Origin: Thalassolituus hydrocarboniclasticus | Lineage (GTDB): Bacteria; Pseudomonadota; Gammaproteobacteria; Pseudomonadales; Oceanobacteraceae | Assembly: GCF_025345565.1 (NCBI RefSeq) | Contig: NZ_CP054475.1 | Coordinates: 3,233,129 to 3,265,128 of the forward strand | Length of the DNA stretch: 32,000 nt | Direction: 5' to 3' | Shown here: one piece after another, positions 3,036 through 22,928 of the stretch | How positions within the stretch are numbered: position 1 is the stretch's first letter | How the letters are laid out: the number at the start of each line of letters is the position of its first letter | The notes under the pieces: generated by a model | What the model was told of the DNA's origin: nothing | Seen by the model: the letters and a program-made list of their open reading frames with translations, nothing else | Database searches by the model: none | Program-made: the position numbers and the translations under genes

Positions 3036-3812
3036 ATGTTACTCCTTAGATCCCTGATTCTCACCCTGTTTGTCGGCTTTTCAGCACAGGCCAGCAGTAA
3101 TTCTCTGGAACAGAATGTTTTCGATCTCAGTGTCGGCGTCAAAACCCTGCTGCTGCGCTATTACCACCTGCAGGCTGATGAAGGTAATCAACAGCTGCTG
3201 AACGAGCTGAACCGTCACCTGCTGCTGGTTAACGAGCAGCAACTAAGCGTCAGTAATGAGCTGCAGAATATTCAGCTGAACAACGGCAGTAACCCCCAGC
3301 AAAATATCGACAGCCACTGGCAGAAATTCCGGACCCTGATGCAGCAGAATATTCATGAAATTGAAGTGAATGACTTCCCGGAGCTGCAGGTCGTGGCCAT
3401 GATGCGTGATGCTTCCAATGCCATGATCAGTGAACTGGAAAAAATCGGCGATGCCCTGCGCCAGAGCGGCGAGTTCTCAGTATCTGCGATTGAAGGCTGG
3501 ACCCGCAGCCAGAAACGGCTGCTGCTGGGAATTACTGAACGTTATCTGGAGCGTGCAGCCTCTTCAATGGGTGCCCCACTCAGCAACAATCAGGATATCG
3601 ACCAGCTCTGCCAGCAATTTGCCCGTGGTCTTGACAGCATTGACAGTAAAACTCTTGGCACAAAGGGGCAGGCTGCGCTACGCCGCATCCGCAGCCAGTG
3701 GTTGTTTGTCGAAAAATCCGCCACCGACACCGAAGCCAAGCTGGTACCCTTTCTGGTCATGCGTTACACCCATAACATGCTCGATCAGCTGAGCAGCATT
3801 GCTGCCAGCTGA
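3036..3812 (+). CDS. Exported hypothetical protein
   Basis: 258 aa with signal peptide MLLLRSLILTLFVGFSAQASS, then helical sequence. RBS-like GGAGA upstream. Confidence 0.75.
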   Translation: MLLLRSLILTLFVGFSAQASSNSLEQNVFDLSVGVKTLLLRYYHLQADEGNQQLLNELNRHLLLVNEQQLSVSNELQNIQLNNGSNPQQNIDSHWQKFRTLMQQNIHEIEVNDFPELQVVAMMRDASNAMISELEKIGDALRQSGEFSVSAIEGWTRSQKRLLLGITERYLERAASSMGAPLSNNQDIDQLCQQFARGLDSIDSKTLGTKGQAALRRIRSQWLFVEKSATDTEAKLVPFLVMRYTHNMLDQLSSIAAS

Positions 3813-3822
3813 TCAGATTGCA

Positions 3823-4494
3823 TTATTTTTCCAGAAGCTGGCGCGGATCGGTTGCCGGATCAGAGTTACTCTCTGCCGCTGAACGAATACTCTGACTCAG
3901 AATCCGGTCGGCGTCGACCGGCCCCAGACATTCACAAACACCAATATAAATAAAATTCAGCAGACGTTTTAAGTCAGTCAGGCCCACTGCGCTGAGATTC
4001 AGCGGATGCCGTTCATCCCCCCACAAATTAAAGGCATAAGCCAGATCCTGCGAAATGCTATGCCGCAGAGACTGTTCCATCGCATAACGCTTAACAACCC
4101 GCGCAGTATCCGAACGCAGTTGCCCGAACAAGGTTGTCAGTACGACATCGTAGACTTGCGTCCAGTCCTGCTGCTGAAACAATTCCATTCTATCCAGACT
4201 GTTACTCTGCGCCTGATCTGACTGAAATTTCAGCATGTCTTCCATAGGATCAGGCTGTAGCTGGGCACTACCATCCATCAGAACCCCGATCAGCTGCCGG
4301 TATAAGTTTGCCCGGTTTTCAGCCACCTCAGGTATATCGCGGCAGTCGGATAAAAATCCGTTTAATTCAAACTGAGACTTTTGGGCATAATTATTTTGCC
4401 AGCGCCACATTGCCCGCCATAAACCATCGCCTTCCAGAGTGGCATTAAGCACAGTAAATACAGCCCGTCTTTTCTGTTCAATCGTCATAGTCAT
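3823..4494 (-). CDS. Hypothetical cytoplasmic protein, probably co-transcribed with amt
   Basis: 223 aa. It starts 10 bp after the amt stop on the same strand. No family recognised. Confidence 0.7.
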   Translation of the reverse strand: MTMTIEQKRRAVFTVLNATLEGDGLWRAMWRWQNNYAQKSQFELNGFLSDCRDIPEVAENRANLYRQLIGVLMDGSAQLQPDPMEDMLKFQSDQAQSNSLDRMELFQQQDWTQVYDVVLTTLFGQLRSDTARVVKRYAMEQSLRHSISQDLAYAFNLWGDERHPLNLSAVGLTDLKRLLNFIYIGVCECLGPVDADRILSQSIRSAAESNSDPATDPRQLLEK

Positions 4495-8105: not shown

Positions 8106-9842
8106 TCAATAGTAGCTGAGAATCTCTTTGATACCCGTATTCTGTTCAACCTCAACCGATTTATGTACTGTTTTTACCGGTTTAACAATGGCATCCCGGC
8201 CCAACTTATAACTTTGCTCTTTGACGACCACCTGATAAGCCTTATTAAGCATCAGGGCACGTTCTGGCTCCGGCAAAAGCAAGTGACCGATATTCTCAGA
8301 CAGTTTTTCAAATTCCTGTAACTTAGGGCTTCGGTCGTCATTAAAGAACTTATTCAGGACTTCTTTATTATCACGGAATTCATTACCGCTTGGGTTTTGC
8401 TCAAGATAATAAGCATACTCGCCGCGCCCATCCTCACGCATGGGATCAGCGACACCTTCGAGTCCTTTTTCCAGCCAGTGATACCAGCCATTGCGGAAAC
8501 TTCCATGATCAAACTTACGGAAAAATGAAATAGTAGTGTCATTCGATGCGCCGATATAACCGTGACATCCGGTACAGAAATACGTTTCTTCGTAGGTCTG
8601 AGGACGTAACTGACCGGCATCATCCTCAATAAAACCCTGATATGTCCATCCCTGAGCAACCGTTAATCCGGACTCCATATTTCCCAGAGCAACTTTAGTA
8701 CGCCATGGAAAGTCGTGACGTTCTTTAATTTCATCATTAACAATACTGCGTAACTGATAGTAGTTTCTCCAGGAGTTCTTTCTGGAGTAACGCACTTCTT
8801 TCATGCGTCTGGCCATGACAACTTTGCCATTGTTAACGTCCAGGTAGCGTACAGTATGAAGAAACTCAGTACCTTCAGGGTATAAGCGTGCTGCCAGATG
8901 AATGTCACCCTGCTCCAGAAGCTCCTTAGCCTGACCAACATAACTCATCATACGGTTTTCTTTTGGCGCCCAGTCATACTTAATGTATGTCGCCTTAGAC
9001 AAGGTTCCATTTTTATCCAGATCAACGCCATATAACGTTTCGTCAGTTTTTTCGATCGGAATATCTTTTTCCTTTATCAGTGATTCGACAATGGCAAAGT
9101 TAATTCTGTAAGCCAGCAGATCAAATTCTCCGTCTTTATTACGGCGAAAAGCTTCCGGAAGCCGGATCATCACATCATCCGTCGAACCGTTCGTTGGCAT
9201 AAAAGTTCCCAGAAACGGGTAATAGGCAAATACTCGCCAGCCGGTATATTCACCTGCCGGCGAGACATCAAAACCCTGTTCATCAAAAGAAAAATATGCA
9301 TCAGGGATATAACCATCCCAACGGCCGTTTTTATTACGGTCCCATTCTTTTGGCAGGTTGTTCAGTTTGGCAGCCAGGATAATACCGCCATTATCAGAGA
9401 AGTAGTTATCTTCTCTGACGTAATTAATAATCTCCTGATCTGAAACGTTAGCAATATCGTCTGTGCGATCTTTAAACAGATTATCCCAGTTGTTTTTCAG
9501 CCCTGTTTCAGGGAAGTTATAGCCGACCTGAACATCGGTATCATTAAGATAATTCGGTCGTTTACTTTCGGTATGACACGCATAACAAGGATTCTGAACT
9601 CCCTGTTCAGAAACCGGGTCGGTATAACATTGTGGCGGAATGTAAGCCACAGGATTATCCGTAGCATCAGCAGTAAGATCAACCAGTGTGCCGAAGGTAT
9701 AGCCAGTGGCAACCGGGTTGGTTTTATTAGCCGCAGCGGAATCATCCGCCGACATCATTGATCGCTCACCATCAGACGATGTAAAACAACCAGATAAAAA
9801 CAGGGTAAACCCGCCAACCAACAACAATGAGTGTGTTTTCAT
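8106..9842 (-). CDS. Lipoprotein with two CxxCH c-type haem motifs, function unknown
   Basis: 578 aa. Lipobox LFLSGC, CxxCH motifs NPCYACH and FCTGCH. Not recognised as a known cytochrome family. Confidence 0.85.
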   Translation of the reverse strand: MKTHSLLLVGGFTLFLSGCFTSSDGERSMMSADDSAAANKTNPVATGYTFGTLVDLTADATDNPVAYIPPQCYTDPVSEQGVQNPCYACHTESKRPNYLNDTDVQVGYNFPETGLKNNWDNLFKDRTDDIANVSDQEIINYVREDNYFSDNGGIILAAKLNNLPKEWDRNKNGRWDGYIPDAYFSFDEQGFDVSPAGEYTGWRVFAYYPFLGTFMPTNGSTDDVMIRLPEAFRRNKDGEFDLLAYRINFAIVESLIKEKDIPIEKTDETLYGVDLDKNGTLSKATYIKYDWAPKENRMMSYVGQAKELLEQGDIHLAARLYPEGTEFLHTVRYLDVNNGKVVMARRMKEVRYSRKNSWRNYYQLRSIVNDEIKERHDFPWRTKVALGNMESGLTVAQGWTYQGFIEDDAGQLRPQTYEETYFCTGCHGYIGASNDTTISFFRKFDHGSFRNGWYHWLEKGLEGVADPMREDGRGEYAYYLEQNPSGNEFRDNKEVLNKFFNDDRSPKLQEFEKLSENIGHLLLPEPERALMLNKAYQVVVKEQSYKLGRDAIVKPVKTVHKSVEVEQNTGIKEILSYY

Positions 9843-9901: not shown

Positions 9902-11734
9902 TTACTGTACGTTTACAGCCGGGAAAGGCCCAACGTAACCGGTGTAAGCACGGGCTTCACCTGAACCGGTATCTTTATCGTCGTCTGTCTCAACATATGG
10001 ATGCTGAACAACTGTCGTCAGATAAGACCAGCCATTGATGTTCGGATACCAGTATGGAGAGGTGGTTTCTGAGCCATACGGGGTGGTCAGAATGCGGGTC
10101 AGTTTTTTCTCTGAAGCAAAATCATAAGCCCACAAAGCATCATTCTGGTGTGTAGTACCTGCATCTTCACCGATGATCAGCATGTCATAACCTGAGATAT
10201 AGGTAACGTTATCCGGCTCGGCGATGCCATCAATATGGCAGCTGTTTTTGGCTTCAAAACCAGCAACCTGTGGGTCAGCAATACTGACCGGACGTCCGGC
10301 GACCAGGCCATACATGTTGTGAGCCACGTAATTGGAGCCGATTGCAGAGTCAGGACCAAGGTCCATCTGATAGACCGCGCCACATTTGTTTTCTTCATCC
10401 AGCTGAATATGATCCGGGCCACCGACATCACCGGAAGTACCAGCCAGCATGCCTTTAGTAACGTTGGACATACCTACGTACATTTTGTGACGCTTGCTGT
10501 CGTAGGTAATCCCTTCTTCTTTACGGAATTCAGTGGTTGCACCCAACATGGCTGCATAGCGACGGGTTTCCAGACGCGAAGCTACTTTTTCCATACCGGC
10601 TTTAACTTTCAGACACTCCTGGCCAACACCATTGGCATTGATCGACGTAAATCCTGCGCTACACGCATTGCCAACCGGATCTTCTGAATCAAAGATGTCG
10701 TTAAAGGTAACCTTGGTTTTACCATTGGTACCGTGCACATAATCGCTGATTTCAGCATTGGTAGCATGACCCAGACTGATCCAGGTCAGATCAGCTGCAC
10801 CAATACCGGTAGAATCTGTCTGGTTCCATTTAGCAGCGTAAGTAGTACCAGCACTCAGATCACCGGCGGTATCAGCCACAAACATATACAGACCAACGTT
10901 AGTACCATCATCAGTCATATAGGTTGTTTTTGAATCAGGCATTACATAAGCCAGTTCGTATGCCAGACGCCCCATTGCATAATGTTTTTCAGTAGTAACA
11001 GCAGCATTTTCCGCAACAGTTACTTCAATATTCCAGCCGTAGAAGTATGGGTTCCATTCGCTCGCTTCAGCATAGTAGTCGAGCATAGAAGCAGAATAAC
11101 TGCTCAGAGCAGCTTCAGCACTGGTTGGCTGTTTTTTAGCATCCGGTTCATATTCCTCTGACGCCAGATGAGTAGTCCATGGAGTAACAGAACCGGCACA
11201 GTGAACCCAGCCACCATCAATGCCTGATTGATCAATCTGAGTTAAGTTAGCAACGCTCAGCTTGCCGTTGTCTTTATCCTGATTCAGCTCCATCAGGAAC
11301 ATGGCACCAGGGCGATCTTCAAACTGAGAAACAGAATACAGTTTATTGCCAATTGGCAGCAGAGAAGTAAATTCGTTGGAATCAGAAATACGGACTGAAC
11401 CATCGTCTTCAGTCAGAACAGTACCCGCTTTATTGACCAGCTGACCAAATGCAACGCCAGAAATAACATCACCTGAGCGTGCCAGTACGTTATATTCACC
11501 GGCATAAATTTTGCCGTTTACAATGGCTTGTGAAACTGTAATTTCACGCTTTTCGGCATCGGTGGCCGGTGCGGCAACGCCTACAAACTTCATAAAGGCC
11601 GGGCTGCCGTTTACGCCATCAGCCCCGGTGTCACCATTAGAACCATCATCACCACCACAGGCTGCCAGGCTCGCGGCCGTAGCAATAACCATCGCCTGCA
11701 AAAGACGCTTTTTCTGAAAAAGTTCCATCGTCAT
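9902..11734 (-). CDS. PhoX/DUF839-like lipoprotein, putative phosphatase
   Basis: 610 aa. Lipobox SLAACGG then a short collagen-like GSNGDTGADGVNGS stretch. PhoX-family-like GGWVHCAGSVTPWTTHLASEEYEPD, RRYAAMLGATTEFRKEEGITYD, HIQLDEENKCGAVYQMDL and EPDNVTYI. Confidence 0.75.
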   Translation of the reverse strand: MTMELFQKKRLLQAMVIATAASLAACGGDDGSNGDTGADGVNGSPAFMKFVGVAAPATDAEKREITVSQAIVNGKIYAGEYNVLARSGDVISGVAFGQLVNKAGTVLTEDDGSVRISDSNEFTSLLPIGNKLYSVSQFEDRPGAMFLMELNQDKDNGKLSVANLTQIDQSGIDGGWVHCAGSVTPWTTHLASEEYEPDAKKQPTSAEAALSSYSASMLDYYAEASEWNPYFYGWNIEVTVAENAAVTTEKHYAMGRLAYELAYVMPDSKTTYMTDDGTNVGLYMFVADTAGDLSAGTTYAAKWNQTDSTGIGAADLTWISLGHATNAEISDYVHGTNGKTKVTFNDIFDSEDPVGNACSAGFTSINANGVGQECLKVKAGMEKVASRLETRRYAAMLGATTEFRKEEGITYDSKRHKMYVGMSNVTKGMLAGTSGDVGGPDHIQLDEENKCGAVYQMDLGPDSAIGSNYVAHNMYGLVAGRPVSIADPQVAGFEAKNSCHIDGIAEPDNVTYISGYDMLIIGEDAGTTHQNDALWAYDFASEKKLTRILTTPYGSETTSPYWYPNINGWSYLTTVVQHPYVETDDDKDTGSGEARAYTGYVGPFPAVNVQ

Positions 11735-11794
11735 CTCTCTCTAAGACTATATGATCAGGAGTTATTTCCTGGGGCGTTAAGCTAGTAGAGAAAA

Positions 11795-11845
11795 ATGACA
11801 GTAAGCGTGCACTTTTATGACAGATATAAGACGATTTCATGACAG
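11795..11845 (-). promoter_or_regulatory. Pho-box-like array upstream of the PhoX-like gene
   Basis: Three perfect CTGTCAT sites (minus strand) at 11839-11845, 11817-11823 and 11795-11801, spaced exactly 22 bp. A degenerate TCGTCTT sits at the 11-bp phase position 11828-11834. Confidence 0.82.
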
Positions 11846-11848
11846 CAA

Positions 11849-12523
11849 TCAGTAACGCCGTACCTGGACCACCACACGACGATTAGCAGCACGCTGCTGT
11901 TCAATTGTCTGGGCCTGATCCACTTCTTTCGGTCTGCTGTCAGCAAAGCCTGACGCCTTAAGACGTTCCTTGGCAACGCCCTGACTCATCAGATATTTAA
12001 CCACATGGGTCGCTCTGGCTGCTGATAATTCCCAGTTGGAGGGAAATTGCTCATTGGCAATGGGAATATCATCAGTGTGACCTTCCACTTCAATCATATG
12101 TGTTTCGTGGCTGGTATCGCGGATAATCGCGGATACCTTTTCCAACAGGGGAACTGCATCGGCTTTTAAATCGGCGGAGCCGGAGTCATAGAGTGCAACG
12201 TTGGCAAACTCCACTTTAACCCCTCGCTGATCAAGGACCACCGACAACTGATCCTGCAGGCCATTCTGCTCGATATAATCATCCAGCGCTTTTTTAATAT
12301 CGGTAAAGGGCGTTGTTTGCTGTCGATCTGTCATTACCGTCGACAATCCTTCCTGCAGCGCTTCTACTTTGCCCTGATCGATATCAGAGACCGACAGAAT
12401 CATCACAAAAAAAGCCAGCAGCAGCGTAATGGCATCAGAATAAGTGATAAGCCAGGAACTGGAGGAATCGTCAAAATTAGGCCGGCGACGGCGCAGGCCA
12501 CGACGCTTTAACGCATCATCCAC
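11849..12523 (-). CDS. motB: MotB-like stator protein with OmpA peptidoglycan-binding domain
   Basis: 224 aa. SSWLITYSDAITLLLAFFVMILSVSDID with the Asp at residue 30. C-terminal OmpA domain IEVEGHTDDIPIANEQFPSNWELSAARATHVVKYL...ANRRVVVQVRR. Confidence 0.88.
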   Translation of the reverse strand: MDDALKRRGLRRRRPNFDDSSSSWLITYSDAITLLLAFFVMILSVSDIDQGKVEALQEGLSTVMTDRQQTTPFTDIKKALDDYIEQNGLQDQLSVVLDQRGVKVEFANVALYDSGSADLKADAVPLLEKVSAIIRDTSHETHMIEVEGHTDDIPIANEQFPSNWELSAARATHVVKYLMSQGVAKERLKASGFADSRPKEVDQAQTIEQQRAANRRVVVQVRRY

Positions 12524-12546
12524 GGCATGCCTCCGGGTATATCAGC

Positions 12547-13347
12547 TCAGAGTTCTTCATCGGCAAGCTGCAGACGAACCGATGGTTTAAGAAAGGCATT
12601 CAGCCTGTCCTGAATAAACAAGGCATCACGCTTTTCCGCCAGCATAACGAAACCTTCGGTAATCAGCTGATGGCGGTAATAAAGTGCTTCCTGTTTTTCC
12701 GTAACCTGATTGGCTGCCGGTTTAAAAAATAAATTCGCCAGTACCACACCATAAAGCGTGGTAATTAATGCCAGCGCCAGCCCCTGACCTAACCCGGCCA
12801 TATCACCGTTCAGGTTATCCAGCATGATAATCAGACCAATAATCGTGCCGACCATACCAAAACCCGGAGCGTAGGTTGCCATGGTATTCAGCACCTTGGA
12901 TTCCAGCGTATGCCGCTGCCAAGTGGCATCCATGGCATCACTCAGCATTATGCGGATTTCGTGGTTTTTATAACCCGAACCAATCAGCTCCATCGCATGA
13001 CACAGGTATTCGTCTTTACTTTCTTCTTTATTCAGACTCTGCTCAAGGGCACTGATACCACCCTGACGATACAGGTTGCTCCAGTCAACAAAGCGGCTAA
13101 CCAGTGTGCGCAAATGCTTTTGCGATGTCGGAGTATGAAAAAAAGTCTGCACCATACTACGCATAGCAATCAGAACATCACCGCTGCTGTAGCTGATCAG
13201 TGAGGCCGCTAACGTACTGCCCAGTACCAGCGCCAGACTGGAAAGACTCATAAATATCTGGTGATGATCCGTACTGCTGACGATGGCAAATGCAAACAGG
13301 CTGATACCGGCGCAAAAGCCGATCAGGGTGCTGAATGAAAACATCAT
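12547..13347 (-). CDS. motA: MotA-like stator proton/sodium channel protein
   Basis: 266 aa. LYRQGGISALEQ region and YAPGFGMVGTIIGLIIMLDNLNGDMAGLGQGLALALITTLYGVVLANLFFKPAANQVTEK. Confidence 0.9.
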   Translation of the reverse strand: MMFSFSTLIGFCAGISLFAFAIVSSTDHHQIFMSLSSLALVLGSTLAASLISYSSGDVLIAMRSMVQTFFHTPTSQKHLRTLVSRFVDWSNLYRQGGISALEQSLNKEESKDEYLCHAMELIGSGYKNHEIRIMLSDAMDATWQRHTLESKVLNTMATYAPGFGMVGTIIGLIIMLDNLNGDMAGLGQGLALALITTLYGVVLANLFFKPAANQVTEKQEALYYRHQLITEGFVMLAEKRDALFIQDRLNAFLKPSVRLQLADEEL

Positions 13348-15261
13348 TTATTCCTGCCCCTGCGACTGTTTAGCAATAGGCGCCAGCTCTTCCATAGAGA
13401 AACGTCCGGCTTTCAGTACATCACGCATTTTCTGTACAACCTGTTTGCGTCCGGCTTCTACCGTTTCCTGAGCAATATCTGCTTCGGTTGTTTTAAGCTC
13501 TGCAATAACGGCTGCGCGCAATTTAGCAGGCAAGGCTGCCAGCACATGGCGTTTAAATTCCGTTGATGTATGACATAAGGCAGCGGCCAGAACACCGCGA
13601 TCTATATCACGCAGCTCATTCGCCAGTACCCGCTCCGGAGCGCGGGCCATATCGGCAAAGGTAAAATAGACCTGACGCAGTCGATAATAGGTTTCCGGCT
13701 TTTCACCTTTTAAGGTTTTCAGTAAGCGGGTTTCTTCAGCACTGTTCATGTTATCCAGCATACGTATCAGTACCGACAGGCCATCGGCACTGATATTCTC
13801 GAACGTTGGCACCGACAGTGACGCCTGTGCCAGACGGTCCGCCACGTCGCGGAAAGCAGAGACAGGGAGCGTATCGAACTGGCCGAGTTCATAAGCCACC
13901 GCCGCCTGATCTTTTTCTTTCATGCGCTGAATAATATCAGCAGCCCGTTCAGCCGGGAGCTGCGACATAACCAGAGCTTTGATGCGGGTATCCTCATCTT
14001 TAATCAGATACAGCACCTGTGAATCATTGAGTTTCTCCAGAAACGAAAACGGTGAATTACCCGCCGAGTTATCAGCTAAGCCCTGCTGAAGACGCTGCTG
14101 GAAAGCACTGAGTGATTGCAGCAACATCTCATTGCTCCAGTCAGTTTCGCTGCGCTGCTGCTCCAGCTCCTGCCACTCGGTACCGGTTAATGCGGGAACA
14201 AGGCTGCGCAATAACGGCTTACCCATCACTTCAAGCATTGCCGCTGCTTCAGAATACTGCTGTCGCTGCAGTCCCTGTTGCACCAGCTGCTGGAATAACT
14301 GTGGCTGAGACAATCCGGATGAAACCAGCGCCTGACGCACTTCATTAACCTGCCGTTTCAGTTCAACCTGCTGGTCATTTTCCTGTGCAACCACGGCACG
14401 ATTATCGCTATAACCGGTATCGGAACTTGCAGTTAAAGGAGCACTTACTGCAGGAATCATCCGGCGGCCTAACGCACGCATCCCGAAACCAATCACCAGC
14501 AATACCAGTAAAAGTGAAGCAAGCCAGAACCACAGCGCGTATTCATCCCAGATACTGAGCACAACAGGTTTTTCATTCTCCAGACGTTTAAATTCGGTAC
14601 GGACAATATTCAGCGTATCGCCACGTAATTCATCCAGCTGGGACTTGCGGGTAATCAGGTTACGCAGGAATTCAACCTGTTCATCATTCAGGGTACGGTC
14701 CACAACCAGAGTGATGGTCATTTTCTTGATGCTGTTGCGAAAGCCCAGTGTTTTCTCACGAATGGTCTGAATTTTGGTTTCGGCTTCCTGTTTCAGCTGG
14801 TCGGCATAATTGAGCACATCGGTACGCTCACGCTCCAGCTGTTGCACTTTATTCTGCAGCGCCTGAATTTCCTGCTCGTTTTCTTTCAAAAGCGGAAGCT
14901 CATTAACCGGAAGGCCTGGCAATGCTTCCAGCTCATTGTCATCAAAGGTTTTGATCGTACGTGGACGGATTTCCGCGACTGGCTGACGCACAGGAGGCTT
15001 AGGTAAAGCAGACCCAGGCGATGCCGGCTCATTGCTTTTCACCATAGTTCGGGTCTTTTGCAGTGTTGCTTCGACCTGAATAATAAAGCGGTTATCGCCC
15101 AGGTAAGATTTGATATCCCGTGCCAGACGCGCTTCCATTTCATTCTTAAAGCGCGCCTCTTCCAGATCATCTTTTTTAACAGGCACTTCATAAGCCTGCT
15201 CTTCTGCAACAACCAGAAGAGAGACAAAGCAAAGTAAGACAGTAAGAATTCTCATCAGCAA
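13348..15261 (-). CDS. Membrane-anchored protein combining FliF-like periplasmic domain, one TM and FliG-like C-terminal domain
   Basis: 637 aa. Signal peptide, then KKMTITLVVDRTLNDEQ...RGDTLNIVRTEF (FliF RBM-like), TM LWFWLASLLLVLLVIGFGM near residues 243-262. C-terminus has LPAERAADIIQRM and ERVLANELRDIDRGVLAAALCHTSTEFKRHVLAALPAKLRAAVIAEL...RKQVVQKMRDV (FliG-like). Confidence 0.75.
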   Translation of the reverse strand: MLMRILTVLLCFVSLLVVAEEQAYEVPVKKDDLEEARFKNEMEARLARDIKSYLGDNRFIIQVEATLQKTRTMVKSNEPASPGSALPKPPVRQPVAEIRPRTIKTFDDNELEALPGLPVNELPLLKENEQEIQALQNKVQQLERERTDVLNYADQLKQEAETKIQTIREKTLGFRNSIKKMTITLVVDRTLNDEQVEFLRNLITRKSQLDELRGDTLNIVRTEFKRLENEKPVVLSIWDEYALWFWLASLLLVLLVIGFGMRALGRRMIPAVSAPLTASSDTGYSDNRAVVAQENDQQVELKRQVNEVRQALVSSGLSQPQLFQQLVQQGLQRQQYSEAAAMLEVMGKPLLRSLVPALTGTEWQELEQQRSETDWSNEMLLQSLSAFQQRLQQGLADNSAGNSPFSFLEKLNDSQVLYLIKDEDTRIKALVMSQLPAERAADIIQRMKEKDQAAVAYELGQFDTLPVSAFRDVADRLAQASLSVPTFENISADGLSVLIRMLDNMNSAEETRLLKTLKGEKPETYYRLRQVYFTFADMARAPERVLANELRDIDRGVLAAALCHTSTEFKRHVLAALPAKLRAAVIAELKTTEADIAQETVEAGRKQVVQKMRDVLKAGRFSMEELAPIAKQSQGQE

Positions 15262-15264
15262 CTC

Positions 15265-15966
15265 CTACTGCTTCAGCCGGTCAAGGCTGGCCTTGACCTG
15301 ATCAAGACTGGGATCAAGTTTAAGCGCCTGCTCCCAGCTGGAACGGGCTTCCGGCAACAGGCCCATCTTGTAATAGATACTGCCTTTTAATGCATGCGCC
15401 TGAGCGGAATCCGGTAAATTATCGAGTGCTGCATTGGTTTCATCCAAAGCCTGCCAATATTGTTTTTTATAGAATAATGACTGGGCATTGAGAATGTGCT
15501 TAGTGGTATTTTCAACCCTCTGATTTTTGTTTTTTTCCTGCTGCTGAGCATTCTCATTCAGATTTTCATGAATTTCTTCAGCCGTCTTATCATCCAGCAT
15601 TTCGGTTATGTCTTCGTCGGCCTCCTGAGGTATTTCTGCTTCTGGCTGAACCGTCTTACCCGGCAGATCCATGACGAATTTCACGTCACTGTCACCGGCA
15701 TCCAAAGTCAGCAACACATCGTAACCATCACCATAACGGTGAATATGCATCAGGCCATGCTGTTTTTTGGCTTGCTCAGCGATTTCAGATTGTTTCTGGA
15801 TTTCTTCTTCTACAACCTCTGTTTCAGATACCCAGCCGGAATTACCATAACCTTTAACCACTTCATTAGTACGCTGATAGCTACAGGCGGCAGGCAAGAT
15901 AAAAACACTCAGGCTTAACAACCGGAACATCATGCGTACCTGGCATTTTACGCAGAATTTCATCAT
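15265..15966 (-). CDS. TPR-containing lipoprotein
   Basis: 233 aa. Lipobox-like LPAAC and C-terminal TPR units (AQSLFYKKQYWQALDETNAALDNLPDSAQAHALKGSIYYKMGLLPEARSSWEQALKLDP). True start may be the internal MMFRLL. Confidence 0.8.
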   Translation of the reverse strand: MMKFCVKCQVRMMFRLLSLSVFILPAACSYQRTNEVVKGYGNSGWVSETEVVEEEIQKQSEIAEQAKKQHGLMHIHRYGDGYDVLLTLDAGDSDVKFVMDLPGKTVQPEAEIPQEADEDITEMLDDKTAEEIHENLNENAQQQEKNKNQRVENTTKHILNAQSLFYKKQYWQALDETNAALDNLPDSAQAHALKGSIYYKMGLLPEARSSWEQALKLDPSLDQVKASLDRLKQ

Positions 15967-17036
15967 CAGAAACGTACCCCCAGCGTCAGGTCATAACTTG
16001 AACCGCCGAATTTCCCAACCTCTTCATAACCGTCTTTTTTATCCCAGCGGGCATCGACTTCTGGCAGGTAGGTGACGCCAAAATCCATAAAGCCATCACT
16101 GAAAAACGGGAATTCAAATCCAAAGCGGAAGATAAGGGAGTTGCTGTCATTGAAGAAGGCCTGCCCCATGCCCAGATACACCCGGGTATCGATCAGCTCA
16201 TCCATACTTGGAATATCGGCAATAATCCGGCCCTCGAGATTTATTCCTGATACGTTAAATAAATCGGTACCGGAGAAATTTCGGAAATATTCAATCGCCA
16301 GAGTATATTCCAGACTGTCATCAATACTGGTGGTTTCACGCCGGCGCAGACCAAATACAGTTACGCCATTAACTTCTTCAGAGCTGCCATCTGTCAGGTT
16401 TTTCCGGCTGCCATCAATCCCCCAGGCACCCACTGTTAATTCATAGTTAACCGCATCGAATCCCTGCTCTTCCTGTTCACGGGTCGTTATCTTCGAATAT
16501 TCCTTAAGCCACAACAGCTGATTATTCCGGCCGTCAACCATGCGCAGGTTGATGGTAAATTTGTCTTCGTGTACTGAAGCATTCCAGAAAATAAAAGCAT
16601 CCGCGCGCACGTGTTTGGCCAGAGCCCGGAGAGCCTGATTGGATTCTGCTGCGTGGGATATTTCCAGCTTATCGGCACGCATCGCTACCTGTGTAGTCCG
16701 GCACTCAATACACTGAATAACCTCAAAGCGTCCGCTATCCATAATCCGGTGCATCAGTTTATTTTCAATCATCAGATGCACCTGCTTGGGAATCTGACGA
16801 TGGAGACGATCACCATTATGATAAAGGGCAACACGGCGGATATTGCTGTCCAGATCGATAAGTTCTTCCAGAACCAGCGTTTTATCATCATCCAGCAATT
16901 GCCCGAAACCGGTATATAAAGAGGGGGCCGGTGAACTCAGTGGCAGCTCGGTTTTGTTATCGGCACAGGCCAGAGAGGGCAGTAACAGCAGGCTGATAAT
17001 CAGCGATAGCTGTTGGAATAGCGTCGGGGAGTTCAT
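15966..17036 (-). CDS. Exported CsgG/FlgO-like and outer-membrane beta-barrel-like protein
   Basis: 356 aa. Signal peptide ending LACA, N-terminal TolB/CsgG-like alpha-beta region (LMHRIMDSGRFEVIQC...ALAKHVRADAFIFWNASV). C-terminus ends in aromatic SSYDLTLGVRF, typical of outer-membrane barrels. Confidence 0.6.
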   Translation of the reverse strand: MNSPTLFQQLSLIISLLLLPSLACADNKTELPLSSPAPSLYTGFGQLLDDDKTLVLEELIDLDSNIRRVALYHNGDRLHRQIPKQVHLMIENKLMHRIMDSGRFEVIQCIECRTTQVAMRADKLEISHAAESNQALRALAKHVRADAFIFWNASVHEDKFTINLRMVDGRNNQLLWLKEYSKITTREQEEQGFDAVNYELTVGAWGIDGSRKNLTDGSSEEVNGVTVFGLRRRETTSIDDSLEYTLAIEYFRNFSGTDLFNVSGINLEGRIIADIPSMDELIDTRVYLGMGQAFFNDSNSLIFRFGFEFPFFSDGFMDFGVTYLPEVDARWDKKDGYEEVGKFGGSSYDLTLGVRF

Positions 17037-17354
17037 TCAATATCCTTTCGTCAGGAGTCCTGATTTTTCTCCCTCCAGCTTAGTTCATATTTCAGAAACT
17101 GAAGTTTTCGCCAGCACTTATTCCGTTTACTTAACATGAGTTAAACAATCAGCACTTTAATACCTTTACTGATTCGCCAATTTTTTTACGGCAAATACCG
17201 CAGACGGGCGCAGATATCCAGCCTCTCTGTTTCCTTCATTTGCAGAACTTTTAAAACAGTGAAAATCTGCCTTTTTTCTGGCGATTTATTCTCGAAAAAG
17301 CGACAGAAAAACATTAAATCGTTTTTGTTCGTACAATCAGACTCAGTTCAGAGA

Positions 17355-17672
17355 CTAACGGCGCAGCATTTCCGCAACTTCACGATCTGTCTGCACCGCC
17401 AGACGCAAATCCCGGGCGGAAATTCCCTGTACGTCGTGACTCCACCACAACACCTCCAGCCTCCCCCAGCTTAAAGTCAGCTGTGGATGATGATCCTGCT
17501 GCTCGGCATGCACAGCAATATTATTAGCCAGATGCAGGGCTGCGCTGAAATTGTTCAGCGTTATGCTGCGCAGCAATGCCGGCACACCGGCAACCTGGGT
17601 TAACTGCCAGTGCGGATGCTCCGCCAGCCAGCTCTGCAATTGCGTGTCATCTATACGGTCGTCAGTCATCAT
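17355..17672 (-). CDS. phhB: Pterin-4a-carbinolamine dehydratase
   Basis: 105 aa. LRSITLNNFSAALHLANNIAVHAEQQDHHPQLTLSWGRLEVLWWSHDVQGISARDLRLA matches the PCD pattern. Confidence 0.8.
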   Translation of the reverse strand: MMTDDRIDDTQLQSWLAEHPHWQLTQVAGVPALLRSITLNNFSAALHLANNIAVHAEQQDHHPQLTLSWGRLEVLWWSHDVQGISARDLRLAVQTDREVAEMLRR

Positions 17673-17773
17673 CCATCTCCCCGGGCAGAATATTCACATT
17701 AGCGGGAAAATCCGGCTTTGCAGAGTCTTTTCTGCGCCAATGTCATTCATACGATGGCTTTACGACAGGCACA

Positions 17774-17799
17774 AAAAAAGGAGCCGGAGCTCCTTTTTT
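17774..17799. terminator. Terminator after fumarase
   Basis: AAAAAAGGAGC-CGGA-GCTCCTTTTTT inverted repeat. Confidence 0.85.
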
Positions 17800-17832
17800 A
17801 TGTATCGCGGTTTAACGCTTATGCGCCTGCGA

Positions 17833-19341
17833 TCAGACTTCGGTTGCGTTAATCTTGGCGTACCAGGTTTGCGGGCCGGTCTTATGTACCGACTCACCTT
17901 TGGTATCCACGGCCACGGTTACCGGCATATCTTCGACTTCAAATTCGTAGATCGCTTCCATGCCCAGATCATCAAAGCCAACAACCTTAGCGCCTTTGAT
18001 TGCCTGAGATACCAGATAAGCAGCGCCACCAACGGCCATCAGATACACAGCTTCGTTATCTTTAATGGCCTCAATGGCGATGTCGCCACGCTCAGATTTA
18101 CCGATCATGCCCAGCAGGCCGGTTTTTTCCAGCACGGTACGGGTGAACTTATCCATACGGGTCGCAGTCGTCGGGCCAGCCGGACCAACCACTTCTTCGC
18201 GTACCGGATCAACCGGGCCCACGTAATAGATAAAGCGGCCTTTCAGATCGACCGGCAGCTCTTCACCTTTAGCGATCATATCGACCATACGCTTATGCGC
18301 CGCATCACGGCCGGTCAGCATCTTGCCGGACAGCAGGACGGTTTCACCGGTTTTCCAGTCTTTTACGTCTTCCGGAGTGATGGTGTCCAGATTCACACGG
18401 CGTACAGAATCACCCACTTCCCAGGTGATCTGTGGCCAGTCTTCCACTTTCGGCGCTTTGAGAACCGCCGGGCCGGAACCATCCAGCACAAAGTGAGTGT
18501 GACGGGTTGCGGCACAGTTAGGAATAATCGCCACCGGCTTGTTTGCCGCGTGAGTCGGGTAATCAGCCACTTTGATGTCCAGTACAGTGGTCAGACCACC
18601 CAGACCCTGTGCACCAATGCCCAGTTTGTTCACTTTTTCGAACAGTTCCAGACGCAGTTCTTCGGCGCGGTTCTGTGCACCACGAGCCTGCAGTTCCTGA
18701 ATGTTGATTGGCTCCAGCAGTGCTTCTTTAGCCAGCATCATGGCTTTTTCAGCGGTACCACCGATACCAATGCCCAGCATACCCGGCGGACACCAGCCAG
18801 CACCCATTTTAGGCACCTGTTCCAGCACCCAATCAACGATGGAGTCAGACGGGTTCAGCATGGCGAACTTGGATTTGGCTTCAGAGCCGCCGCCTTTGGC
18901 TGCCACATGCACGTCCACGGTGTTACCCGGAACCAGTTTCATGTGGATGATGGCCGGCGTGTTGTCTTTGGTGTTGGCACGTTTGCCATCCGGATCAGCC
19001 AGCACAGAGGCGCGCAGCACGTTGTCAGGATGGGTGTAAGCGCGGCGTACGCCTTCGTTACACATATCCTCAACACTCATGTCGCCTTCGAACTTCACGT
19101 CCATACCAATGGTCAGGAACACGGTAACAATACCGGTATCCTGACAGATCGGACGGTGGCCCATGGCACACATACGGGAGTTGATCAGAATCTGCGCCAT
19201 GGCGTCTTTCGCAGCCTTGGACTCTTCGCGCTCATAAGCCGCATGCACGGCATCAATGAAGTCTTTCGGGTGATAGTACGAGATGTACTGCAGTGCATCA
19301 GCGACGCTCTGGATCAGGTCTTCTTGCTTGATCACAGTCAT
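17833..19341 (-). CDS. fumA: Class I fumarate hydratase
   Basis: 502 aa. ICQDTGIVTVFLTIGM, GGGSEAKSKFAMLNPSDS, MGAGWCPPGMLGIGIGGTAEKAM, GPAGPTTATRMDKFT, AVGGAAYLVSQAIKGAKVVGFDDLGMEAIYEFEVEDMPVTVAVD. Confidence 0.95.
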   Translation of the reverse strand: MTVIKQEDLIQSVADALQYISYYHPKDFIDAVHAAYEREESKAAKDAMAQILINSRMCAMGHRPICQDTGIVTVFLTIGMDVKFEGDMSVEDMCNEGVRRAYTHPDNVLRASVLADPDGKRANTKDNTPAIIHMKLVPGNTVDVHVAAKGGGSEAKSKFAMLNPSDSIVDWVLEQVPKMGAGWCPPGMLGIGIGGTAEKAMMLAKEALLEPINIQELQARGAQNRAEELRLELFEKVNKLGIGAQGLGGLTTVLDIKVADYPTHAANKPVAIIPNCAATRHTHFVLDGSGPAVLKAPKVEDWPQITWEVGDSVRRVNLDTITPEDVKDWKTGETVLLSGKMLTGRDAAHKRMVDMIAKGEELPVDLKGRFIYYVGPVDPVREEVVGPAGPTTATRMDKFTRTVLEKTGLLGMIGKSERGDIAIEAIKDNEAVYLMAVGGAAYLVSQAIKGAKVVGFDDLGMEAIYEFEVEDMPVTVAVDTKGESVHKTGPQTWYAKINATEV

Positions 19342-19431
19342 GACGGGTTCTCTCTCATAGGCTCGCGGGTGTAAAAACGCCCACGTCGGTGGGCGTTACA
19401 GTCGGCCTATTGTACCCCAACTACTGCCGGT

Positions 19432-21249: not shown

Positions 21250-22110
21250 TTACGCCAGCAATGAAGCGCGGATCCTGACGCGTAAAGGTGTCGCCAGCTG
21301 CAACAGCATACGATCCCGTAACCAGAGCGGGCGCAGGTCGTCAGGCAGCTGCGGCTGCAGTACTTCCTGACAGGTCAGAACCTCTTCCAGAGCATCCAGA
21401 GCCGCCAGTGAATAGTGCTGTGGCGAGGCAGAGAAAATATCCGCCAGATGCCCGGCCGCTGCCAATAATTGTTCACCTTCTCCGCCGCTATGGGTATTTG
21501 CCAGCAACCAGCCACTGAATGCCAGCGCAACATGCACATCTTCCCAGTAGCGGAAAGGCTTATTCAGCTGACGATGAGCATCATGGCAACGGTAGGCCGA
21601 GGTGATGTTTACATTGGTGAAGCGTACCGGGGTATGGGGAACATCCGCTAAGAAAGGCTGCTCTTTACGCGCAGCCAGAACTTCAATCCCTGTCGCATCT
21701 ACCGCTACCTGCACACACAGCAGATCATCATCGCAGGCAGCAACCACATACAGCAGGTCGAGCCCACGGCTGGCCAGCATGACATGGGATTTTTCGCCAT
21801 TCAGACAGGAAGTTTGTGCGTCAAAGCGGGTCTGCATCTGCCGCAAAGAACGTAATCCGGCTTCAGAGATACAGAATGCCGCCCAGGCGTCGGCAGCAAG
21901 TTGCGGATCAAGCTGACGCATCGCCGCCTGATAACCGCAGAAAAACGCAGTGCCCGGCGTCGCCGCACGCTGACCGTATTGCCAGGCGACTTCTATGGAT
22001 GTGAGGGTGCAGAAAGAATTGGCAAGCTCACGCCGCAGCTGCGCCGCATCCTGCTCAAGAGACAGGCGTGGTGCCGTAGCACCACGCTGACATAATGCGG
22101 ACAGCGGCAT
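21250..22110 (-). CDS. Divergent acyl-CoA-dehydrogenase-like protein, tentative
   Basis: 286 aa. Weak resemblance to the C-terminal part of acyl-CoA dehydrogenases. TAATG overlap with the upstream gene. Confidence 0.5.
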   Translation of the reverse strand: MPLSALCQRGATAPRLSLEQDAAQLRRELANSFCTLTSIEVAWQYGQRAATPGTAFFCGYQAAMRQLDPQLAADAWAAFCISEAGLRSLRQMQTRFDAQTSCLNGEKSHVMLASRGLDLLYVVAACDDDLLCVQVAVDATGIEVLAARKEQPFLADVPHTPVRFTNVNITSAYRCHDAHRQLNKPFRYWEDVHVALAFSGWLLANTHSGGEGEQLLAAAGHLADIFSASPQHYSLAALDALEEVLTCQEVLQPQLPDDLRPLWLRDRMLLQLATPLRVRIRASLLA

Positions 22111-22928
22111 TATTGTGCGCCGCCACCCAGCGCATTCTGAATGCGGTCCAGACGGATCTGAATATCTTCAATTTCCAGCTTCATATCGGCCAGATTACCG
22201 CCAGCGCCACTCTGACGCATCTTGGTCATAGCCGCTTCCAGAGACTGAATAGACTCGGTGTTCTGCGCCACGCGCAGCTCCGTTTCCGCAGGCATCGACA
22301 GCACCTGAGCTTCGACTTTGGCTATCTTCTTCTTCAGGTCAGCAATACCAGCATCCAGTTTCTTCTGTAATGCAGCATCGCTTGCTGCCAGAGCTTTCTG
22401 CTGTTTGTCATTGCTGGCCTTCAGTTCTTTATCCAGACCGGCCAGCGATCCTTTTAACGACGTGATGGCTTTTTCATTGCTGGCGATATCAGCCTTATTA
22501 CGCTTATTCGCCACATCCCAGAGTTTACGGATTTCGGTATCGTGTTCTTTGATAATTACTTTCAGAGCATCCAGCGACAGGTTGGCATTTTCACCAGTAA
22601 CCGACAGTTTCTCATTCAGCACATTAATATTGGCAGCCTGGCTTTTCAGCAGTGCTTCAGCATTGGCAAACTGTCCCTGCAGAGTCTGTAACTGCGTAAA
22701 CAAAAAGGCGGCCAGACCACCCATTGCCACAGCAACGACCAGCGCCACAACAGCCAGCGTCTGTTTCTGTACTGGCGCGGCTACAGTCGCTGCAGCCGAT
22801 GGACCGGCTTTTGCCGCTGCTGCACGCTGGGCCGCAATACGACGAGCCTGCAACTGCTTCTGACGCAGGGCAATATCTTCCTGCGATGGCTTCATATCCG
22901 GCACCAGTGGTTCTTTTTCTTTATCCAT
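22110..22928 (-). CDS. Single-TM protein with long coiled coil (HemX-like architecture)
   Basis: 272 aa. Ala-rich cytoplasmic N-terminus, TM LAVVALVVAVAMGGLAAFLFTQL, then heptad-rich coiled coil. Confidence 0.7.
   Translation of the reverse strand: MDKEKEPLVPDMKPSQEDIALRQKQLQARRIAAQRAAAAKAGPSAAATVAAPVQKQTLAVVALVVAVAMGGLAAFLFTQLQTLQGQFANAEALLKSQAANINVLNEKLSVTGENANLSLDALKVIIKEHDTEIRKLWDVANKRNKADIASNEKAITSLKGSLAGLDKELKASNDKQQKALAASDAALQKKLDAGIADLKKKIAKVEAQVLSMPAETELRVAQNTESIQSLEAAMTKMRQSGAGGNLADMKLEIEDIQIRLDRIQNALGGGAQ

Follow-up and report, generated by a model that had tools for sequence, protein, structure and literature searches.

The 32,000-nucleotide stretch of Thalassolituus hydrocarboniclasticus DNA analysed here (contig NZ_CP054475.1, positions 3,233,129 to 3,265,128; called the window in what follows, and numbered from its first letter) contains a five-gene operon. 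The third gene of this operon encodes a protein whose first part resembles FliF, the ring protein of the flagellar base, and whose second part resembles the rotor protein FliG. All five genes lie tightly packed on the minus strand, in the order P356 outer-membrane protein, tetratricopeptide repeat (TPR) lipoprotein, fusion protein, MotA and MotB.

15966..17036, minus strand: gene 1, P356, a FlgO-like beta-barrel outer-membrane protein of 356 residues (AlphaFold2, Foldseek, weak Pfam FlgO match)
15265..15966, minus strand: gene 2, a TPR lipoprotein of 233 residues (Pfam TPR_1/TPR_2 at 1e-7, lipobox)
13348..15261, minus strand: gene 3, the fusion of a short FliF with FliG, 637 residues from a TTG at 15261 or, more likely, 635 residues from an ATG at 15255
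12547..13347, minus strand: gene 4, a MotA-type stator A subunit of 266 residues, of the PomA/MotP-like four-helix type
11849..12523, minus strand: gene 5, a MotB-type stator B subunit of 224 residues

The start of the TPR gene overlaps the stop codon of the P356 gene (ATGA), and the motA ATG directly abuts the TAA of the fusion gene. The open reading frame (ORF) of the fusion gene, 13348-15261, is intact and runs for 637 residues when read from the TTG at 15261. The ATG at 15255, with an AGGAG 6 nt before it, gives the 635 residues of an identical NCBI protein and is therefore probably the real start. The NCBI protein is annotated as 'FliG C-terminal domain-containing protein'. Genes for type III export, the rod, the hook, the filament, FliM and FliN are all missing from the operon. 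The remaining window ORFs were scanned with Pfam down to a length of 150 residues, and no flagellar gene was found among them, fliM and fliN included.

The features of the fusion protein follow the order of FliF and FliG from the periplasm through the membrane to the cytoplasm. RBM3 is the third ring-building motif (RBM) of FliF, TM1 and TM2 are its two transmembrane (TM) helices, AF2 stands for AlphaFold2 and pLDDT for its predicted local distance difference test score.

15202..15261, minus strand: signal peptide, residues 1-20 (...LLVVA/EE), in place of FliF TM1 (an N-terminal hydrophobic segment occurs throughout the family)
14590..15198, minus strand: periplasmic split RBM3-like domain, residues 22-224 (Pfam, DSSP of the AF2 model, Foldseek, hhalign)
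14758..15036, minus strand: insert in the RBM3-like domain, residues 76-168, at the position of the FliF beta-collar (pLDDT, conservation)
14908-14922, minus strand: LPGLP motif, residues 114-118, within the insert
14461..14538, minus strand: single TM helix, residues 242-267, equivalent to FliF TM2 (hhalign, hydropathy scan)
14263..14460, minus strand: cytoplasmic FliF C-terminal segment, residues 268-333 (hhalign, reaching FliF residue 550 of 552)
14062..14262, minus strand: FliG_N-like domain, residues 334-400 (hhalign, family profile A4, Pfam in the family, Foldseek)
13810..14052, minus strand: FliG_M domain, residues 404-484 (Pfam FliG_M, E=1.3e-15, on 414-484)
13396..13785, minus strand: FliG_C domain, residues 493-622 (Pfam FliG_C, E=4e-14, on 516-622)
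13486-13527, minus strand: torque helix, residues 579-592, within FliG_C

The signal peptide is presumed to be cleaved. The periplasmic domain that follows it is matched by Pfam YscJ_FliF_C on residues 52-224 (E=4.7e-5, 24.3 bits against a cut-off of 23.8), and a phmmer search of the PDB gave a weak match of residues 189-268 to residues 416-498 of Vibrio FliF. A family profile built from 79 members (A4) was searched against the PDB sequences and matched Salmonella FliF at 6.3e-13 (profile 22-303 on FliF 220-558), Vibrio FliF at 2.7e-8 and, marginally, SpoIIIAG (E=0.017). In hhalign the family aligned with E. coli FliF at a probability of 96.2% (E=2e-9), with FliF residues 374-550 of 552 on family columns 165-347, a span that takes in the final beta-alpha-beta of RBM3, then TM2 and the C-terminal helix that binds FliG. 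Residues 177-271 of the fusion itself are aligned by hhalign with E. coli FliF 373-474 at 24% identity, and over the hhalign comparisons the probability for E. coli FliF 373-550 is 95-96%. The equivalent of the FliG-binding helix is GLSQPQLFQQLVQQ, which matches ...NDPRVVALVIRQW in E. coli FliF. A preliminary description of this DNA, made from the letters alone, had likened the stretch KKMTITLVVDRTLNDEQVEFLRNL...DELRGDTLNIVRTEF to the last FliF ring-building motif and had noted a TM helix after it. The stretch is found at residues 179-224 and the hydrophobic helix ALWFWLASLLLVLLVIGFGM at 242-261, and the likeness is borne out by the Pfam and hhalign matches and by the RBM3 rings that Foldseek retrieves. 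The FliF-like and FliG-like regions extend further than was described at that time, as the N-terminal alpha-beta (residues 32-75), the FliG-binding helix and the FliG_N-like domain are present in addition to the last beta-alpha-beta.

The AF2 prediction, which is of the monomer only, has a mean pLDDT of 75.5 with a 17-sequence alignment. DSSP assigns to it the helix of the signal peptide, a beta strand at 23-28, an alpha helix at 32-54 and beta structure at 59-75, followed by a disordered Pro-rich stretch at 77-122, a helix at 123-164, beta structure at 169-188, an alpha helix at 193-207, beta structure at 216-222, the TM helix at 242-267 and a cytoplasmic part that is all helical. It is the N-terminal alpha-beta (residues 32-75) that makes the split RBM3-like topology complete, and the order alpha-beta-insert-beta-alpha-beta is the one described for the split RBM of FliF RBM3 and SpoIIIAG (PMC4768692). 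When the AF2 model was used in Foldseek, the FliF RBM3/S-ring structures 8zdt, 6sd1 and 8ftf (E of about 1e-3) were the only non-FliG fold family retrieved at this level. The RBM3-like domain is closed by a nearly invariant RGD (213-215). In the predicted structure the beta-collar is replaced by a Pro-rich disordered linker (pLDDT <50 for residues 77-122), the LPGLP motif and one 42-residue helix (123-164, about 6 nm), and a short two-stranded collar may still form, the flanking strands being long (17-20 residues). L114, P115 and G116 of the LPGLP motif are conserved in 128-130 of 135 family members, very distant ones included, and the motif presumably serves in binding. Pfam gave no N-terminal YscJ_FliF match in the fusion for TM1, RBM1 and RBM2, the SctJ-like half of FliF in which the export gate sits, and only about 20 residues precede the first helix of the RBM3-like domain. 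The protein had been called a minimal natural fusion; this is accurate for FliF, since RBM1 and RBM2 are absent, but not for FliG, which is carried complete.

The evidence for a complete FliG comes from several searches. In the PDB the fusion sequence matched Aquifex FliG (3hjl) at 4.4e-14 by phmmer, and Thermotoga FliG was also matched. The A4 profile matched FliG structures at 1e-51 and the isolated FliG_N chain 5tdy_B at 2.3e-4, and hhalign aligned the family with E. coli FliG at a probability of 99.0% (E=3e-18), FliG residues 5-323 of 331 lying on columns 348-640. Foldseek aligned the AF2 model with full-length FliG 3hjl over 315 of 321 residues. The NCBIfam model for the FliG equivalog, TIGR00207, scores 60.7 bits against a cut-off of 226.7. 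The FliG domain is covalently attached to a membrane protein and is not a free-standing cytoplasmic FliG. Because the two hhalign alignments abut, with family column 347 at FliF residue 550 and column 348 at FliG residue 5, the protein is an end-to-end join of the FliF C-terminus to the FliG N-terminus, the FliF part comprising about residues 1-333 and the FliG part about 334-637.

An unfused cassette provides independent evidence for the fusion. Locus L053 (419-3227) encodes a partial MotA, MotB, a 382-residue short FliF and a 310-residue FliG with N, M and C domains, and the stop of the 382-residue gene overlaps the start of the FliG gene. The 382-residue protein has YscJ_FliF_C as its only Pfam domain and possesses a signal peptide, LPGFP, RGD, a TM helix and, at its C-terminus, a GNPETATNILNNW helix. 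The boundary between these genes is exactly where the family profile divides, the short FliF covering profile 5-305 (E=4e-36) and the FliG 304-600 (E=3e-89), which indicates that a short fliF gene was fused with fliG. The L053 FliG keeps more of the canonical torque-helix charges (K, R, E-D), and the unfused cassette may represent the ancestral arrangement. Free-standing FliG-like proteins of about 310 residues, the L053 FliG being one of them, are among the best matches of the profile. The third gene of the Thalassolituus operon almost certainly encodes a single-pass inner-membrane protein that is a natural fusion of the C-terminal half of FliF (RBM3-like domain, TM2 and FliG-binding helix) with a complete FliG.

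The functional residues of the FliG part were mapped by a residue-level alignment to T. maritima FliG together with statistics from 135 family members. The preliminary description had raised the conservation of the charged torque-helix residues, and they turn out to be kept in part.

E. coli FliG R281 corresponds to K580, which does not vary within the clade and is R or K in 117 of 135 family members
E. coli FliG D289 corresponds to E588, E or D in 17 of 17 close members
E. coli FliG K264 corresponds to C563, an invariant Cys in the clade
E. coli FliG D288 corresponds to A587, not kept
E. coli FliG R297 corresponds to A597, not kept

The hinge Gly, G494, is kept in 130 of 135 members, and the MFxF equivalent is kept as YFTF (532-535). 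The FliM-binding EHPQ of FliG_M reads EDTR (423-426) in the fusion, and across the family only the Glu is conserved. The site for FliM is lost from the fusion, which fits the lack of a fliM or fliN gene in the window ORFs that were scanned.

The two stator proteins are of the flagellar type. The best NCBIfam matches of MotA are MotP (5e-48, 163 bits against a cut-off of 394) and PomA (8e-38, 130 against 341), below equivalog level, and its PDB matches include C. sporogenes MotA (8ucs, 1.3e-29) and PomA (8e-27). MotA R94 and E102 align with PomA R88 and E96, the equivalents of E. coli MotA R90 and E98; R94 is conserved in 38 and E102 in all 39 of the 39 close orthologues, and both are conserved in most of the distant ones too. 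MotB has a plug and an OmpA-like peptidoglycan-binding domain (Pfam MotB_plug 1e-14, OmpA 5e-18) and matches NCBIfam MotD at 8e-53, which like the MotA matches is well below the equivalog cut-offs for named flagellar stators. Its TM motif ...YSDAIT... contains Asp30, which is conserved in all 39 close orthologues and in 8 distant ones and which we take, from the E. coli motif, to be the equivalent of E. coli D32. The FliG_C domain of the fusion and the MotAB of the operon probably form a cognate working pair.

The first two genes of the operon encode an outer-membrane protein and a probable outer-membrane lipoprotein. P356 has a signal peptide of the signal peptidase I type, a periplasmic alpha/beta domain (about 68-183) like those of FlgO, LpoB, TolB-N and PelC, and a C-terminal beta-barrel of about 8 strands that resembles OmpA and OmpX and ends in Phe. 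The pLDDT of its AF2 model is 73.7 overall and 85-93 in the barrel. With Foldseek the periplasmic domain retrieved LpoB (1.3e-5), TolB-N, PelC and GNA1162, and the barrel retrieved OmpA, OmpX, NspA and Ail. Weak Pfam FlgO matches occur in 21 of 21 members of the P356 family, the best at 8e-4, and some members also match FlgT_M, CsgG or LpoB. An invariant CxxC (C109 and C112, in the form C-[IL]-E-C; window 16701-16712) lies in a low-confidence loop of the periplasmic domain, and this Cys pair could form a disulfide or bind a metal. The TPR protein has a lipobox, L-[AS]-[GA]-C, that is conserved in nearly all orthologues and is not followed by Asp at position +2. By the usual Lol sorting rule a lipoprotein that lacks Asp at +2 goes to the outer membrane, so the TPR protein is probably an outer-membrane lipoprotein.

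The cassette is conserved well beyond T. hydrocarboniclasticus. A genome scan found 39 Saccharospirillaceae-related loci in Thalassolituus, Oleispira, Oceanobacter, Bacterioplanoides, Bermanella and Oceaniserpentilla as well as in unclassified metagenome-assembled genomes (MAGs), and none of them departs from the five-gene order within the reach of its contig. To judge by the P356 homologue P0314, O. antarctica RB-8 has the cassette. Most of the 39 loci also adjoin a fumarase gene, which indicates vertical inheritance of the cassette. The ratio of nonsynonymous to synonymous substitution rates (dN/dS) is 0.02-0.08 for all five genes in comparison with two congeners, values that are approximate as dS is >1 and near saturation. 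The operon is under strong purifying selection. When 1.84 billion representatives were searched exhaustively with the profile, 162 clusters at 50% identity were found at E<=1e-30. About 130 of the top 150 family representatives are 520-780 residues long, and a hydropathy scan of about 130 representatives detected a hydrophobic N-terminus in most and one TM helix at about 160-380 in nearly all. FliG_M is matched by Pfam in all 79 members of the family profile, FliG_C in 78, FliG_N in 56 and YscJ_FliF_C in 21. LPG (114-116), RGD (213-215), PFxF (404-407), E423 and G494 are nearly invariant in the 135 members. The named distant members are MAGs only, assigned to 'Deltaproteobacteria bacterium TL4', Gammaproteobacteria and Pseudomonadota, or are labelled simply 'bacterium'. 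A protein search with the broader profile brought back the same clade and yielded no further taxonomy.

Linkage outside the clade was judged on ten informative distant loci. MotA and MotB are encoded within a few genes of the fusion in seven of the ten, in three arrangements: downstream of the fusion (L040, L041/42, L043 and L047), downstream after two other genes (L050), or upstream (L051 and L052). A TPR gene adjoins the fusion gene in most distant loci, and homologues of P356 are found in the cassettes L041/42, L052, L051, L050 and, weakly, L040. The unfused cassette at L053 shows that short FliF, FliG and MotAB form the conserved unit. The members at L045, L046 and L048 may have stators encoded elsewhere or may work differently; at L045 (6001-9709) a 771-residue fusion is followed by a KAP-family NTPase gene. 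The flanking genes also differ among the distant loci. They are exopolysaccharide export genes at L052 (8614-14130; BBP2 porin, Wza, Wzc, Wzy), a MoxR-DUF58-DUF4381-VWA (Bat-like) operon at L047 (8953-12262) and two CarboxypepD_reg/Calx-beta proteins of 700-800 residues at L040 (10508-15116). Such envelope neighbours are possible hints to the output of the cassette, but they are inconsistent with one another.

In the Thalassolituus window a scan of 11500-17500 for promoters and terminators gave counts equal to the shuffle expectation, and no sigma-28 or sigma-54 consensus was seen by eye upstream of gene 1. The other genes of the window encode housekeeping proteins, namely a thiolase, PurU, Amt, PpnN, PhoX, pterin dehydratase, fumarase and SodB, and the type II secretion proteins GspN, GspC and GspD, the last of which is the secretin (gspN, gspC and gspD at 24554-28147, minus strand). 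The gene for the PhoX-type alkaline phosphatase (9902-11734) follows motB after 115 bp, on the same strand. Only some of the related loci have this gene, so it is probably not part of the cassette. A neutral ceramidase-like gene is located at 28331-30409. Five ORFs have no Pfam match at E<=1e-5: 8106-9842, 21250-22110, 22110-22928, 3036-3812 and 3823-4494 (578, 286, 272, 258 and 223 residues, respectively). A 607-residue ORF at 17551-19374 on the plus strand lies opposite the class I fumarase gene (17833-19341, minus strand), in antisense, and is almost certainly a shadow ORF.

Compared with the FliF-FliG-MotAB core of the flagellum, the cassette has RBM3, TM2, the FliF C-terminal helix and FliG N, M and C in the same order, and the same topology of periplasm, membrane and cytoplasm. 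The equivalents of FliG R281 and D289 on the torque helix, of MotA R90 and E98 and of MotB D32 are present, as are the plug and the peptidoglycan-binding domain. However, the fusion has no TM1, RBM1, RBM2 or beta-collar, and FliF and FliG are one polypeptide. The export gate, rod, hook, filament, FliM and FliN are missing from the cassette along with the EHPQ site, and the operon, which lies outside flagellar gene clusters, brings its own FlgO-like outer-membrane protein and TPR lipoprotein. SpoIIIAG, the ring of a sporulation channel, is similar in that its RBM is split, the insert coming after beta1 and before beta2, and in that a single TM helix anchors a ring-forming domain that is periplasmic or intermembrane. 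It differs in lacking a FliG domain and a MotAB partner, and a beta-barrel takes the place of the helix in its insert. ExbBD-TonB, TolQR-TolA, GldLM, AglRQS and ZorAB (reviewed in PMC9389320) are 5:2 ion-driven motors of the inner membrane with non-flagellar outputs that are coupled to periplasmic or outer-membrane partners, and the cassette is likely to follow the same logic in bringing ion-motive energy to the outer envelope. Their A and B subunits are generic and non-flagellar and their partners are unrelated to FliG or FliF, while the Thalassolituus cassette has a stator of the flagellar type that presumably works on a FliG domain.

The preliminary description had proposed a natural FliF-FliG fusion. 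The end-to-end join supports this, but it is not the first, since a natural fusion has been published for the Chlamydiaceae (Bergeron 2016, PeerJ, PMC4768692), with a different architecture and without MotAB. The comparison given here is with the published description of that protein and not with its sequence. Both proteins, whose setting lacks a complete flagellum, have a FliF-like periplasmic RBM region, a TM helix and a cytoplasmic domain that is FliG-like. The Chlamydiaceae protein is about 330 residues long and has RBM2 with one further RBM-like segment, an N-terminal TM helix and a FliG_M-like domain only (PMC4768692). It does not have a SpoIIIAG-like RBM3, it is thought to be associated with the injectisome, and no MotAB partner has been reported (PMC4768692). 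In contrast, the 635-residue Thalassolituus protein keeps RBM3 and the full FliG N, M and C, and its gene is in an operon with motAB. The fusions that have been engineered in Salmonella and Vibrio alginolyticus link the FliF C-terminus to the FliG N-terminus in the same end-to-end manner (PMC6079021, PMC10941966, PMC11481574). They contain the whole of FliF inside a complete flagellum, whereas in the natural protein the FliF side is cut short and the periplasmic insert is another one. Engineered fusions form rings in membranes (PMC10941966, PMC11481574, PMC6079021), and those of Salmonella support flagellar assembly and rotation (reviewed in PMC4768692).

Why should a FliF-FliG fusion be encoded together with its own stator and two outer-membrane proteins? 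It is suggested, with rather more confidence than doubt, that the fusion is the rotor or driven element of an ion-driven envelope machine that is derived from the flagellum and has neither filament nor export apparatus. In such a machine MotA5MotB2 units anchored to peptidoglycan would conduct ions by way of MotB Asp30, and the ion flow would rotate the MotA pentamer. Arg94 and Glu102 of MotA would engage the FliG_C torque helix of the fusion at Lys580 and Glu588. The fusion would assemble through its RBM3-like domain into a membrane ring, and force or torque would pass through the covalently attached TM helix into the periplasm, where the insert, with its Pro-rich linker, LPGLP and helix of about 6 nm, would contact the TPR lipoprotein and the FlgO-like outer-membrane protein. 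The machine would have no switch and would deliver ion-motive energy to a process at the outer membrane. A ring is plausible because RBM3-RBM3 contacts have been proposed to initiate assembly of the MS-ring (PMC11739650) and because the engineered fusions form rings. The fusion may work as a rotating ring, for which we put the chances at somewhat less than even.

Several observations weigh against this interpretation. The ring is an inference. The periplasmic domain is only about 15-24% identical to FliF, the case for its N-terminal half comes chiefly from Pfam/hmmsearch and from the predicted topology, and the FliF beta-collar is missing. Two of the five classical FliG charged residues are kept, and three (K264, D288 and R297) are lost. 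The dN/dS values are approximate, three of the ten distant loci (L045, L046 and L048) have no adjacent MotAB, and the neighbouring genes vary between lineages with no common cargo evident. Thalassolituus is itself a flagellated genus. The related genus Oleispira is flagellated too and has a full flagellar cluster (PMC3759055). For this reason the MotAB of the operon could instead serve the polar flagellum.

The most specific form of the proposal is that the cassette is a free-standing rotary motor in which its own MotAB spin a ring of short FliF-FliG and the helical periplasmic 'shaft' turns against the outer-membrane complex. This form is tentative, and the odds are against it taken by itself. 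Such a motor would be either a stripped-down descendant of the basal body or a surviving relative of an ancestor that preceded export, and it would power an outer-membrane process such as the handling of surface polymers or proteins.

The alternative that survives best, though we consider it unlikely, is a force transducer of the Ton/Tol type that does not rotate. MotAB would pull on a monomeric or dimeric fusion by way of FliG, and the insert would tug the TPR lipoprotein and the outer-membrane protein. Periplasm-spanning segments and box motifs are found in TonB and TolA, and they resemble an insert made of a disordered Pro-rich stretch, a long helix and an invariant LPGLP. The partners are outer-membrane proteins, as this alternative would have it, and the ring is deduced and not seen. 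Against it, the insert is flanked by a domain that is homologous to a motif dedicated to ring building, and the RGD in which RBM3 ends hardly varies. We know of no case in which FliG_C is driven other than as part of a ring. Ring rotors are so far the only partners against which a MotA of the flagellar type, with its four-helix torque interface, has been found, and flagellar transporters are separated from generic ones in PMC12505986.

Slightly less probable again is that the operon is an accessory module of an ordinary polar flagellum. MotAB would then be a second set of stators, and the fusion, the outer-membrane protein and the TPR protein would be scaffold or regulatory parts, like those of the H/T-ring or of stator docking, at work on the canonical motor and not in a separate one. 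The flagellar type of MotA and MotB is in keeping with this, as MotP, PomA and MotD are their best NCBIfam matches and flagellar stators their best PDB matches. P356 is weakly similar to FlgO and FlgT_M, and FlgO and FlgT are outer-membrane and periplasmic parts of the Vibrio polar flagellum. The genome paper of Oleispira antarctica describes two flagellar stator systems, MotAB and PomAB (PMC3759055), one of which may be the MotAB of the cassette. On the other hand, a scaffold would not need the complete C-terminal half of FliF and a FliG in which torque helix, hinge Gly and xFxF are conserved. The operon lies away from the flagellar genes, the FliM-binding motif is lost, and an RBM3-like domain with about 15-24% identity is too diverged to be expected to co-assemble with FliF. 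Furthermore the cassette, its unfused version included, travels with MotAB as a self-contained unit in distant lineages.

The remaining alternatives carry very little weight. An evolutionary relic, a second flagellar system in decay, is suggested by the presence of only flagellar-type parts without the rest of a flagellum, but conservation effectively refutes it: the ORFs are intact, the five genes are syntenic across the six named genera wherever the contig covers the cassette, dN/dS is low, at least 162 clusters at 50% identity share the architecture, and catalytic and interface residues are conserved. The least probable alternative, to which we give next to no credence, is that the C-terminal part is an MgtE_N-like or generic ARM/HEAT domain, or that the operon is a defence operon of the Zorya type; it draws on a Pfam MgtE_N match of 24.1 bits (below the cut-off of 25.9) and on PADLOC matches of MotA and MotB to ZorA and ZorB, but the family profile gives MgtE (2yvy) 0.33 against the 1e-51 of FliG and hhalign covers nearly the whole of FliG, so that the C-terminus is FliG, as first described, and not MgtE. 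The ZorA matches of MotA, which has only 266 residues, reach 14-18 bits and are confined to the TM core, whereas the best flagellar MotA is matched at about 107 bits, and the other three operon proteins were matched by none of the PADLOC models, ZorC and ZorD included. A PADLOC match to LmuB (23 bits) spans a coiled-coil region and is regarded as compositional.

In the literature that was searched, which covers few subscription journals, no description of the family or cassette was found, and a recent paper on the evolution of MotAB does not mention a FliG-linked non-flagellar clade. The Chlamydiaceae protein is the only published natural FliF-FliG fusion found, and the cassette itself looks to be undescribed. 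If the ring is driven by its cognate MotAB, a single polypeptide would combine ring, membrane anchor and torque interface without about 25 other flagellar proteins, which would make it attractive for the reconstitution of torque generation in vitro and for structures of the FliG-MotA interface. A free-standing motor, if true, would add a new class to the rotary machines of bacteria, and of the natural units in which FliG and MotA generate torque it would be the smallest. The ion-driven 5:2 motors (Ton, Tol, Gld, Agl and Zor) would gain a member that keeps the flagellar rotor. For the origin of the flagellum it would mean that a rotor-stator module exists and is selected independently of type III export and the filament, and scenarios of which came first would become testable by the phylogeny of FliG, FliF and MotAB. 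In current annotation the members of the family go by 'flagellar motor switch protein FliG' or 'FliG C-terminal domain-containing protein', and the MotAB of the cassette may pass as a second flagellar stator. Such annotation could mislead inferences on motility in marine hydrocarbon degraders such as Thalassolituus, Oleispira and Bermanella.

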